From NCBI RefSeq assembly GCF_030384885.1, contig NZ_CP128613.1: DNA of 64,000 bases; one strand, given 5' to 3'. The notes below the pieces were generated by a model, which was not told the DNA's origin, ran no database searches, and was given only the letters and a program-made list of their open reading frames with translations. The position numbers and the translations under genes are program-made. Of the stretch, positions 3,855-8,263 are shown in pieces (positions within the stretch are counted from its first letter, which is position 1; each line of letters opens with the position of its first letter). The stretch is from Escherichia coli. GTDB lineage: Bacteria > Pseudomonadota > Gammaproteobacteria > Enterobacterales > Enterobacteriaceae.

Positions 3855-4739
3855 ATGAAAAAAACATTACTGGCAGCCGGTGCGGTACTGGCGCTCTCTT
3901 CGTCTTTTACTGTTAACGCAGCTGAAAACGACAAACCGCAGTATCTTTCCGACTGGTGGCACCAGAGCGTTAACGTTGTCGGAAGCTATCACACCCGTTT
4001 CGGACCGCAGATCCGCAACGATACCTACCTTGAGTACGAAGCATTCGCTAAAAAAGACTGGTTCGACTTCTATGGGTATGCGGATGCGCCGGTATTCTTC
4101 GGCGGTAACTCCGATGCAAAAGGTATCTGGAACCACGGTTCCCCGCTGTTTATGGAAATCGAACCACGTTTCTCCATCGACAAGCTGACCAATACTGACC
4201 TTAGCTTTGGTCCGTTCAAAGAGTGGTACTTCGCGAACAACTACATTTACGACATGGGTCGTAATAAAGATGGTCGCCAGAGCACCTGGTACATGGGTCT
4301 GGGTACCGATATTGATACTGGCCTGCCGATGAGCCTGTCCATGAACGTGTATGCAAAATACCAGTGGCAGAACTATGGCGCAGCGAACGAAAACGAGTGG
4401 GACGGTTACCGTTTCAAAATTAAATACTTTGTGCCGATTACCGATCTGTGGGGTGGTCAGCTGAGCTACATCGGCTTCACCAACTTCGACTGGGGTTCCG
4501 ATTTAGGGGATGACAGCGGTAACGCAATCAACGGTATTAAGACCCGTACCAATAACTCCATCGCTTCCAGCCATATTCTGGCTCTGAACTACGATCACTG
4601 GCACTACTCTGTCGTAGCTCGTTACTGGCACGACGGTGGTCAGTGGAACGACGATGCAGAACTGAACTTCGGCAACGGCAACTTCAACGTTCGCTCTACC
4701 GGCTGGGGTGGCTACCTGGTAGTAGGTTACAACTTCTGA
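3855..4739 (+). CDS. tsx: Nucleoside-specific outer-membrane channel Tsx
   Basis: 294 aa from ATG 3855; [22 protein letters not shown] signal peptide; ends in aromatic ...VGYNF typical of a beta-barrel. Confidence 0.95.
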
Positions 4740-4746
4740 TGAATGA

Positions 4747-4775
4747 AATGCCGGATCTTGTATCCGGCATTTCAG
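4747..4775 (+). terminator. Putative intrinsic terminator downstream of tsx
   Basis: Stem aatgccggat / atccggcatt with 5-nt loop at 4747-4771, followed by a short T-containing tail. Confidence 0.5.
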
Positions 4776-4802
4776 ATTGTTAACAACGTGCGCTTTGTTC
4801 AT

Positions 4803-4900
4803 GCCGGATGCGGCATAAACGCCTTATCCGGCCTACAAAAACACGTAAATTCAATACATTGCTGAGATTACGTAGGCCTGATAAGCGTAGCGCATCAGGC
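4803..4900. repeat. REP/BIME pair
   Basis: gccggatgcggcataaacgccttatccggcctac (4803-4836) and inverted gtaggcctgataagcgtagcgcatcaggc (4872-4900) match the enterobacterial REP consensus. Confidence 0.85.
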
Positions 4901-4956
4901 AATTTTGCGTTTGTCATAAAGCTCAAATAACGGATTTTGTATCCGTCATTTTTTTA

Positions 4957-5304
4957 TCACTTCTTCTTATTCATCATCGCTTTTAAATCAGCGAATGGGT
5001 TGTACTTCGCTTCACCGATATCTTTCTGCGCATCTTCCCCTGCGATAACCGTCGTACCATACTGATCCGCTTCGGTATATTTCGAATGCTCATGATCGTG
5101 GCAATAGAGACACAACAATTCCCAGTTACTGCCATCTTCCGGGTTATTAGTATGGTCGTGATCAATGTGGTGAACAGTAAGTTCACGCAGGTTGGAATAG
5201 ACAAACTCGCGGGAACAGCGACCGCAGACCCACGGATAGAGTTTTAACGCTTTTTCGCGATAGCCGCTTTCTAACCGCGCATAATTTTTTGGGATGATAG
5301 CCAT
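4957..5304 (-). CDS. yajD: HNH-family nuclease-like protein YajD
   Basis: 115-aa ORF with HNH-type motif HHIDHDHTNN...LLCLYCHDHEH; ATG at 5302-5304. Confidence 0.9.
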   Translation of the reverse strand: MAIIPKNYARLESGYREKALKLYPWVCGRCSREFVYSNLRELTVHHIDHDHTNNPEDGSNWELLCLYCHDHEHSKYTEADQYGTTVIAGEDAQKDIGEAKYNPFADLKAMMNKKK

Positions 5305-5433
5305 GAGAAGTTACCTGGATGAAATGTAGGGTTAGGCGCAGTTTCCCAAGATGCGAGGGTTTTCGCAATCACCTTACATCAAAAAAAAATCCCGATCTTC
5401 TGACCGGGATTTTCAACATCAGCTGAAACTTGA

Positions 5434-6405
5434 TTAAGGCAGAATTGACGGCTGATCCGCCCCTTCTTTCTCCACTTTCTGCTGTAACATGTGTTCGCGC
5501 TTCATACCCAGTTTCAGGGCCAGCGCCGATGCTACGTAGATAGAAGATGCAGTACCGATAGTCACACCAATCAGCATGGTCAGCGAGAAGCCTTCCAGTA
5601 CCGGACCACCGAAGAGGTACAGCATCAGGATAACCATCAAGGTAGTACCGGATGTGATCAAGGTACGGTGCAGCGTCTGGGTCAAGGACACGTTAAAGAT
5701 TTCGTAAGGCGTACCGCGACGGATCTTGCGGAAGTTTTCACGAATACGGTCCGAGACCACGATACTGTCGTTAAGCGAGTAACCGATGACCGACATCAGT
5801 GATGCCACAATAGTCAGGTCAATCTCGATATGGAATAACGACAAAATACCCAACGTAATGATCACGTCGTGCGCCAGCGCAATAACGACCCCTGCAGCCA
5901 GTCGCCACTCAAAGCGGAAACCTACATACACGAGGATAGACAGCAGCGCCACCATCAACGCCATCGCACCGGTTTGCGCAAGGTCTGCCCCCACGCTCGG
6001 ACCAACGAATTCAATACGCTTCACTGCCGCATTCTGATTGGTGGATTCGTTAATCACCTTCAGAACCTGGCTGCCCAGCACCTGACCGCCGGTTTCGCCT
6101 TCAGCAGGCGGCATGCGGACCATGATGTCGTGGCTGCTACCAAAGTTTTGCAGCATTGGCTCTTCAAAACCGGCTTTTTGCAATGCATCACGCATTACAT
6201 CAATTTCAGCGGGTTTTTCGAGCGTAATTTCAATAACCGTACCACCGGTGAAATCCAGCCCCCAGTTAAAGCCGCGTACGCCCATTATGACGATAGCGGC
6301 GATCAACAGCAGACCAGAGATGCCAAATGCCCAGTAGTCCCAGCGCATAAAGTCATAGACTTTACGGCCGTGGTTTAGTTGTTCAACAGTATATTCCTGT
6401 GCCAC
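5434..6405 (-). CDS. secF: Protein translocase subunit SecF
   Basis: 323 aa from GTG at 6403-6405 ([16 protein letters not shown]...); the track ORF extends 15 codons upstream into secD. Confidence 0.93.
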
Positions 6406-6415
6406 ATCGCACTCC

Positions 6416-8263
6416 TCAGATTGACAGCTTCTTGACGCGCTTGCCGCCATATAGCAGGTTTACGATGGCACGCGTACCGACAATCGCGGTAAACATCGAC
6501 GTCGCCACACCGATACCGGTAGTAATCGCGAACCCTTTAATTGCCCCGGTACCCACTGCGTACAGGATGATGACTTTAATCAGCGTGGTGATGTTCGCAT
6601 CGAAAATGGAACTGAATGCGCCACGATAACCTTCATCAATTGCCTGTTGAACAGTACGTCCGTTGCTCAACTCTTCTTTAATACGTTCGTTGATCAGTAC
6701 GTTCGCATCGACCGCTACCGCAAGGGTTAAGACGATACCCGCGATACCTGGCATACTCAGCGTTGCGCCTGGCAACAGCGACATAATGCCGACGATCAAG
6801 ATCAAGTTGGCAATCAGAGCACTGGTCGCAATCAGACCAAACTTCTTATAGAAGATGATCATAAACAGAATAGAAACCAGCAGACCGGCAAGGCAAGCCT
6901 CCAGCCCCTGTTCAATGTTCTGCATACCCAGAGTCGGGCCAATGGTACGTTCTTCAACAATCTGAATTGGCGCGATCAACGCACCGGCACGCAGCAAAAG
7001 TGAAAGCTGACGGGCTTCGTTCGGGTTGTTAATACCGGTGATACGGAAGCTGTTACCCAGACGAGACTGGATGTTAGCGATGTTAATCACCTCTTCCTGT
7101 TTCACCAGAACCGCACGACCGTTAGCATCTTTCTTACCGCTGTCTTTGTACTCCACAAATAGGGTCGCCATCGGTTTGCCGATGTTGTCCTTGGTGAAGT
7201 TAGACATGATGTTGCCACCAGCGCTATCGAGCGAGATGTTAACCTGCGGCTGGTTGTATTCGTCCTGGCTGGAAGTGGAATCAGTGATGTGGTCACCGGT
7301 CAGAATTACGCGTTTGTACAGCACAACAGGCTGACCTTCGCGGGTCTGTTTCACTTCAGAGTCGCCCGGTACGCGTCCAGACGCAGCAGCGGCCTGGTCA
7401 ACGTTGGTATTTACCAGACGGAATTCCAACGTTGCCGTTGCACCCAGAATCTCTTTCGCTCGTGCGGTGTCCTGGATACCAGGCAGCTCAACAACGATAC
7501 GGTCAGCACCCTGACGCTGAACCACCGGCTCCGCCACGCCAAGCTGGTTTACACGGTTACGCAGTATGTTGATGTTCTGTTGCACCGCGTATTCACGCGC
7601 CTCACTCAGACGCGCATCGCTCATTACCGCACGCAGCTGATTGCTGCCCTGGCTACTAATCACCAGGTCCGGATGACGCTTGCTCAGATACGCAATGGCT
7701 TCATCACGAGCTTTAGCATCGCGGAAAGTGATGCTCAGGCCGTAGTTGTTTTCTTTACGAACGGTGGTATACGGGATGCCCTTTTCGCGCAGGTCGCTGC
7801 GCAGGCTATCGATATTTTGTTCCTGGAGTTTGCCAAGCGCGGTGTCCATATCCACTTCCATCAGGAAGTGAACGCCGCCACGCAGGTCAAGGCCGAGCTT
7901 CATCGGCTCAGCGTGAATAGCTGCCAGCCAGCGCGGCGTTGCCGGGGCAAGGTTAAGCGCCACGACGTATTTGTCACCCATAACGCCCATTAATGCTTCA
8001 CGAGCGCGCAGCTGGGTGTCAGTGGAGTCGAAGCGCGCAAGAATAGCGCCCTCTTCCAGTGCCACAGACTTAGCAGTTATTTTTTCTTCTTGTAACGTTT
8101 TCTGGACCTGGATCAGCGTTTGCTCACTGGCGGCGACTCCGCGCGCACCAGTGATCTGAACAGCCGGATCCTCACCAAACAGGTTGGGAAGCGCATACAG
8201 CAGACCGATGACAATCACCACGATCAGCATGACGTACTTCCACAAAGGATAACGGTTTAACAC
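6416..8263 (-). CDS. secD: Protein translocase subunit SecD
   Basis: 615-aa [20 protein letters not shown]...; GTG start (cac at 8261-8263). Confidence 0.95.

Follow-up and report, generated by a model that had tools for sequence, protein, structure and literature searches.

What does a small HNH protein do when it is encoded by almost every strain of a species, consists of a single domain and sits beside secDF? The question is raised by yajD in the 64,000-nucleotide stretch of Escherichia coli DNA that we analyzed (NZ_CP128613.1; hereafter the window). The gene, its HNH annotation and its uncharacterized status were already known, and to our knowledge YajD has no assigned function. A search of the open full-text literature, with subscription journals largely outside its scope, returned no functional study of YajD, and there were no biochemical data for YajD in the literature searched. 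In Salmonella Typhimurium, deletion of yajD affected neither growth at various temperatures, pH values and salt levels nor, as a single deletion, H2O2 survival and mouse virulence (PMC3878590). Sensitivity to H2O2 was seen in the cbpA/yajD and ychN/yajD double mutants of the same study (PMC3878590), a phenotype that offers a weak and indirect clue to the role of YajD. Apart from the Salmonella deletion and its lack of a single-mutant phenotype, the open literature yielded an example of a transcription pause and a terminator test, and the statement in the initial annotation that the function is unassigned therefore holds.

Organization and transcription of the yajD locus

The yajD coding sequence occupies positions 4957 to 5304 of the minus strand (115 codons; ATG start; stop codon at 4957–4959), an assignment based on the open reading frame (ORF) list, a 210-bit match to the NCBIfam YajD family and the RefSeq label, which for the same ORF in E. 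coli genomes reads "yajD: HNH nuclease YajD". The listed 115-aa translation, MAIIPKNYARLESGYREKALKLYPWVCGRCSREFVYSNLRELTVHHIDHDHTNNPEDGSNWELLCLYCHDHEHSKYTEADQYGTTVIAGEDAQKDIGEAKYNPFADLKAMMNKKK, includes both HHIDHDHTNN and CLYCHDHEH, the two strings quoted when the gene was first noted, to which the listing adds the strand; secF (5434 onward) and secD are likewise encoded on the minus strand. The window is part of an Escherichia chromosome and has the gene order nusB-ribH-ribD-nrdR-yajI-tsx-yajD-secF-secD-yajC-tgt-queA-acpH-malZ. Within 6 kb of yajD lie nrdR, yajI, tsx, secF, secD, yajC, tgt and queA, and none of the neighbors in this range is a mobile-element or restriction-modification gene.

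A strong intrinsic terminator of secF (5385–5414, minus strand), consisting of a 13-bp stem and a T-run, parts yajD from the yajC-secDF operon. The 80 bases between this terminator and the start codon form the yajD 5′ region (5305–5384, minus strand), with a Shine-Dalgarno AGG at 5314–5316. Just 3′ of the stop codon lies a hairpin terminator (4930–4946), called on the plus strand with a T-run and having the minus-strand continuation TATTTGAGCTTT. In vitro work has validated the terminator of E. coli yajD (PMC12207403), and a NusG-suppressed transcription pause has been mapped within yajD (PMC10268239). Considering the secF terminator upstream, the hairpin downstream and the published terminator and pause, we conclude that yajD is expressed as its own monocistronic transcription unit in E. 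coli.

A scan of positions 4600 to 5700 gave no match to a sigma-70 consensus promoter. On the minus strand of the 5′ region, CTTGGGAAACTGCGC(C/G)TAACCCTACATTT loosely resembles a sigma-32 promoter and, read by eye, CTTGGGA-N12-CCCTACAT weakly suggests a sigma-32-like promoter for Escherichia yajD. A TAACCCTACATTT-like element also precedes yajD in Enterobacter sp. Ag1, despite the different locus there (upstream regions L001, L007 and L009). When 81 yajD loci were read by eye, ordinary TATATT-type −10 boxes and a common RBS context were seen upstream of the gene in other genera, and the 81 aligned loci displayed neither a common upstream regulatory motif nor an obvious LexA box.

The intergenic region between tsx and yajD (4760–4900) is filled with REP/BIME-type palindromic repeats. 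No structured RNA was detected in or around yajD by Rfam, whose matches were all below threshold and fell on the REP repeats and the secF terminator. Two of these matches were to the REP-derived families naRNA4 (4797–4833, minus strand; 36.6 bits vs. a threshold of 59.5) and ES036 (4839–4879, plus strand; 30.1 bits vs. 37.6).

Conservation of yajD and extent of the family

Of 5426 complete E. coli genomes, 5424 carried exactly one copy of yajD, always full length, in agreement with its earlier description as a conserved core gene. The dN/dS ratio relative to the K-12 type was approximately 0.04 (0.007/0.165), and dN for the core was close to 0 within Escherichia; purifying selection on the YajD core is very strong. 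The protein encoded in the window is 98% identical to the K-12-type protein, the differences being I22L and V96I. At the DNA level, only 2 of the 5459 E. coli records matched the 4700–5600 region at 99% identity or more, and 5323 matched it at 90–95%; strain 2013C-4282 shared 99.9% identity with the yajD region, and for most E. coli the figure was about 93%. Judged by these identities, the window derives from a divergent Escherichia lineage.

Among 1.8 billion representatives, the YajD family comprised 645 clusters (50% identity) at E values up to 1e-3 and 289 at E values up to 1e-10, many of which are frameshifted or chimeric metagenome products. The named members belong mostly to the Gammaproteobacteria (Enterobacterales, Vibrionales, Alteromonadales, Chromatiales and Metallibacterium), and members also occur in Nitrospira and Myxococcota MAGs. 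Domain fusions were considered as clues to a partner and set aside, because the longer representatives carried frameshifted tails or looked like chimeras joined at a common short word. Read by eye, P0131 seemingly joins an argininosuccinate-synthase-like N-terminus to YajD at REKALK, P0129 joins another protein to YajD at RERAL, and both look like artifacts. The 560-aa P0189 consists of a complete YajD followed by approximately 430 unrelated residues, reflecting either a genuine fusion or the loss of a stop codon.

Genomic context of yajD

A conservation and synteny survey had been proposed together with the initial annotation; beyond establishing yajD as a core gene in E. coli, it revealed no conserved neighbor. 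The synteny scan took one genome per species and covered 80 loci, all gammaproteobacterial. secF adjoined yajD only in Escherichia, Kluyvera, Pseudocitrobacter (with one gene inserted) and one Salmonella record; Enterobacter, Citrobacter, Klebsiella, Serratia, Yersinia, Vibrio, Shewanella and others each had different yajD neighbors, and none was conserved across the 80 genomes. The 102 distinct immediate flanking proteins spanned 140 Pfam families, the commonest of which, GST, occurred three times. Neither an operon partner nor an immunity gene or a small ORF upstream was conserved, and the same-strand neighbors at less than 70 nt differed by genus. Among the 25 of these 140 families that were listed, there was no transposase, integrase, restriction-modification or defense family. 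The claim that yajD lacks flanking mobile-element and restriction-modification genes thus extends from the window to the flanking families listed from other genera. The adjacency to secDF is real in the window, but it occurs in only a few enterobacterial genera, and the secF terminator lies between the genes. For these reasons a functional link between yajD and secDF was dropped, and we conclude that the adjacency, being limited to Escherichia, Salmonella, Kluyvera and Pseudocitrobacter, carries no functional message.

In Pantoea, yajD is located on plasmids of 130–180 kb and not beside secF (61 plasmid records). The Pantoea protein is about 92% identical to YajD, and its gene has an RND efflux pump and a 2-phosphosulfolactate phosphatase among its neighbors (Pantoea vagans C9-1 pPag1, L085, 6001–6348). 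In Salmonella enterica CP082688.1 (L084), the interval from yajD to tsx, occupied by REP repeats in the window, contains an Ldr-family type I toxin gene at 6786–6893. This record is a 238-kb linear "plasmid" that bears the chromosomal core genes from queA to thiL, and it is therefore probably a chromosome fragment.

The contexts of yajD in Nitrospira, Chromatiales and Metallibacterium were again unrelated, and most of the distant representatives lie on contigs too short for an informative context. In Metallibacterium scheffleri (L088–L090, 4049–10793), yajD and a full-length recQ lie 90 bp apart and are divergently transcribed, with ligA 2 kb downstream; on a JGI contig, uvrD lies two genes away from another member of the YajD family. 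The proximity of recQ, ligA and uvrD is an anecdotal hint, from two cases only, at DNA metabolism.

The HNH domain and its conserved residues

The Pfam HNH family PF01844 matched YajD residues 27–75 over positions 1–47 of its 47-position profile (E = 1.1e-12; 48.4 bits vs. a cut-off of 21.4), and the NCBIfam equivalog NF008448, "YajD family HNH nuclease", matched residues 2–113 over positions 2–113 of 113 (E = 6e-63; 210 bits vs. a cut-off of 87). NF008448/PRK11295 represents E. coli YajD, the same gene at the same secF-tsx locus, with no difference of substance. PF01844 is the sole domain in YajD and the family members are almost all 100–160 aa long, consistent with the initial view of a stand-alone HNH-like protein.

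An N-terminal helix comprising residues 8–22 (5239–5283, minus strand) was delimited by the AF2 secondary structure and by column conservation; Y8, E12, Y15, R16, A19 and L20 within it were 100% conserved among 82 gammaproteobacterial copies. It is followed by the HNH core, alternatively termed the beta-beta-alpha-metal core (residues 27–75; 5080–5226, minus strand), which includes the zinc knuckles C27-x2-C30 and C65-x2-C68, strand 42–46 ending in H45-H46, N60, and helix 66–82 bearing H69 and H73. The predicted structure has the beta-beta-alpha-metal fold, with two antiparallel strands and then a helix.

Family alignments of 29, 71 and 136 members, down to about 40% identity, were used to assess these positions. 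In the 136-sequence alignment, H45, H46, H51, D57, G58, C65, C68 and L107 were invariant, and conservation of at least 90% was observed on the N-side of the core for C30, R32, F34, L42, T43, V44, D48, N53, N54 and P55 and in the rest of the protein for S59, N60, W61, E62, L63, L64, Y67, H69, D70, E72, H73, P103 and F104. The positions of the catalytic His, the structural Asn, the helix metal ligands and the CxxC...CxxC pair are all occupied in YajD and invariant or at least 90% conserved (n = 136). The description of the HNH metal-binding motif as complete is accordingly upheld, with C27/C30/C65/C68, H45, H46, N60, H69 and H73 invariant or nearly so.

Judging from the Pfam register and the fold, the general base is predicted to be H46, the last residue of strand 1, with H45, H69 and H73 as the metal ligands and N60 as the structural Asn, and C27, C30, C65 and C68 would form a structural zinc site in the model. 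The HH...N...H-x3-H pattern and its spacing presumably parallel the H-N-H motif of the colicin E7/E9 DNases. The local H-x-D-H-D-H of YajD resembles T4 endonuclease VII, the best match among PDB sequences other than zinc fingers (E = 0.01). The local alignment with this enzyme had made H49 a candidate for the catalytic His, which was dropped since the position varies across the family; H49 is replaced by G or N in several members and is thus not an essential histidine. A classical C2H2 zinc finger was also considered and rejected. The matches to the ZBTB17 and SALL4 fingers among PDB sequences were weak (E = 0.004–0.007) and needed a 2-residue gap, and the AF2 model placed H45/H46 in a strand, with C65/C68 completing the zinc site.

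The structural neighbors of YajD were DotN (6.7), EcoKMcrA (6.6), GVE2 HNH (6.6) and the Gme HNH nickase (5.9), followed by the HNH modules of Cascade-HNH, Cap5, Cas9, IscB and retron effectors.

A conserved C-terminal peptide behind a variable linker

The initial annotation stated that YajD has no partner domain. There is indeed no second domain, but this statement overlooked a conserved C-terminal peptide that implies a partner. Downstream of the core, residues 76–100 (5005–5079, minus strand) form a variable linker of low confidence (pLDDT 50–58), and residues 101–115 (4960–5004, minus strand) form a conserved peptide motif, Y-N-P-F-A-D-L-K-A-M-M-N-K-K-K. The consensus of this tail across the family is A-T-[HY]-x-P-F-A-x-L-x-x-[LM]-[LM]-K-K, in which, among 135 members filtered at 88% identity, 130 have the P, 133 the F and all 135 the L. 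The gap between the second CxxC and the tail motif varies from 27 to 47 residues across the family. In a Nei-Gojobori comparison with a Shewanella copy, the core had a dN of 0.125 and the tail motif one of 0.117, whereas the linker, at 0.946, is close to saturation; constraint on the tail thus equals that on the catalytic core.

AF2 predicted a short helix at residues 107–113 of the tail, with a pLDDT of 64–72; for the tail, the value did not rise with a deeper alignment (64–68). This low confidence fits a peptide that binds in trans and is folded by its partner; docking of the tail in cis was, as judged by pLDDT, unsupported. From its conservation and the model, the tail motif is probably a tethered docking peptide that docks YajD to a partner. 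Two YajD tail peptides compared with the PDB gave no match at E values up to 10. We also compared the tail with the clamp-binding (QL[SD]LF), SSB-tip (DDDIPF-COOH) and FtsZ C-terminal peptide patterns, and rejected all three as misfits.

Comparison with HlpB and with HNH-fold proteins that do not cut

B. subtilis HlpB (YisB) resembles YajD in that both are chromosomal lone-HNH proteins of about 100 aa, conserved within their lineages and devoid of a partner domain. HlpB is proposed to handle recombination or repair intermediates in connection with AddAB (PMC3765158, PMC5714182), and it binds DNA cooperatively with no cleavage seen (PMC3765158, PMC5714182, citing Pediaditakis 2012). The hlpB gene adjoins addAB and sbcCD and can be dispensed with only when addAB is deleted (PMC3765158, PMC5714182). 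By contrast, yajD has no conserved repair-gene neighbor in the 80 genomes and is dispensable in Salmonella, whereas hlpB is conditionally essential. YajD is not a member of the HlpB family either, since it scored 13.3 bits against the HlpB model NF058586 (cut-off 130; E = 0.086).

The absence of detected cleavage by HlpB provides a precedent for YajD being a non-cutting, zinc-binding protein that uses the HNH fold to bind DNA or to act as an adaptor, and the HNH-like zinc module of Legionella DotN/IcmJ, used for protein contacts, provides another for the adaptor. DotN-type proteins have lost the HNH catalytic residues. In YajD, however, the whole catalytic set (H46, H45/H69/H73 and N60) is invariant or nearly so, and given this invariance a scaffold role is not expected; we regard a non-cutting YajD as unlikely.

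Comparison with phage, homing, defense and toxin nucleases

Outside the family, the best relative of YajD is a free-standing HNH protein of the Vequintavirinae (Av-05 YP_009111209), which is 46% identical over residues 21–85 and shares VHHIDHD.TNN and CxxCH..EH with the YajD core. It is extended by about 75 aa at its N-terminus and lacks the N-terminal helix and the C-terminal motif of YajD. The DNA polymerase gene of these phages is split into two or three pieces by HNH genes (Av-05, L094, 99–4955; Klebsiella phage KpS11, L095, 169–3525), and the polymerase-splitting HNH protein closest to the YajD core, at the same 46% identity, is 151 aa long. From their position, these HNH genes, annotated just as "HNH endonuclease", would have a homing role. 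The genes of Gme HNH (PDB 4H9D), GVE2 HNH (5H0O) and HK97 gp74 adjoin terminase or cos sites in phages and prophages; unlike them, yajD is a chromosomal core gene without phage neighbors. The matches to small phage HNH proteins end at about residue 86, and these proteins therefore lack the YajD C-terminal motif. On their own, the small HNH nickases Gme, GVE2 and HK97 gp74 are weak and non-specific.

It is quite unlikely that YajD is a domesticated or selfish phage homing-type HNH, or a solitary anti-phage or anti-plasmid nuclease. Such an origin or role would be in line with the polymerase-splitting habit of the closest phage relatives of the core, with the different positions of yajD in close enterobacterial genera and on Pantoea plasmids, and with weak local matches to ZorE of Zorya in PADLOC (E = 5e-7; YajD residues 22–76 vs. 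positions 213–269 of 282). On the other hand, yajD is present in single copy at a fixed site in E. coli and hence not sporadic, it is intergenic, and its product has no additional DNA-recognition domain, features at odds with a homing endonuclease. Very strong purifying selection also argues against this reading, as does the lack of any full-length family member in 50,697 phage records. As for the defense nucleases (ZorE and the retron, Septu and CBASS HNH proteins), the PADLOC matches covered only the generic HNH core, and the flanks of yajD are housekeeping genes, with no integrase, transposase, defense or immunity gene among the families listed. Nor does YajD resemble the nuclease toxins (colicin and pyocin DNases, polymorphic toxins), as it is a single domain and the genes adjacent to yajD vary by genus.

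Discussion

An action of YajD on RNA, or on the machinery of translation or transcription, with its basic C-terminal helix anchoring it to the ribosome or RNA polymerase in the manner of ArfB, is improbable: a catalytic domain joined by a flexible linker to a basic C-terminal helix would resemble the tail-anchored ribosome factors, extreme conservation is typical of proteins contacting universal machines, some His-Me nucleases cut RNA and ArfB uses a linker and a C-terminal tail, but none of our results points to RNA, the structural neighbors of YajD are all DNA enzymes, and the sole linkage to translation genes is the location near tgt, queA and secDF, which is lineage-specific.

The reading that we prefer, with a probability of roughly 40%, is that YajD is a cytoplasmic zinc-finger HNH (His-Me finger) DNA nuclease that is recruited by a partner and functions in genome maintenance, loosely like HlpB. 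Nuclease activity is predicted from the conserved catalytic set, which is of the colicin/Cas9 style and intact. YajD would nick or cut nucleic acid, most likely DNA, by one-metal His-Me catalysis, in which H46 would activate water, H45, H69 and H73 would hold the catalytic metal and N60 would brace the hairpin. Lacking a DNA-recognition domain, YajD would be unable to select a substrate by itself; its amphipathic C-terminal peptide, an LxxLL-like helix, and the disordered linker may dock it onto a conserved partner or restrain it via that partner. It would have a redundant and non-essential part in maintaining the genome under stress, for example by processing damaged or recombination intermediates. 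A further proposal, which we put forward as doubtful, is that YajD may be an overlooked proteobacterial genome-maintenance nuclease recruited or gated by its LxxLL-like tail through a replisome, recombination, repair or transcription hub.

To what was known of yajD, the present analysis adds the lineage-limited adjacency to secDF, the relocations of the gene, including those to Pantoea plasmids, and the tethered, conserved C-terminal motif. yajD is an E. coli gene that lacks a function although it is near-universal, constrained and predicted to encode a cutter of nucleic acid, and a nuclease that is constitutively encoded without an immunity gene or a targeting domain must be controlled somehow. 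The C-terminal peptide offers a concrete handle on the controlling partner, through pull-down, mutagenesis and interface prediction. Should the tail bind nothing and YajD not cut, it would be a conserved zinc protein of another kind. If YajD is a hub-recruited nuclease, it would be what HlpB is to B. subtilis, its functional counterpart in the Proteobacteria, and would bring with it a new docking motif; and if its partner is a repair or replication hub, YajD would be a new component of bacterial genome maintenance.
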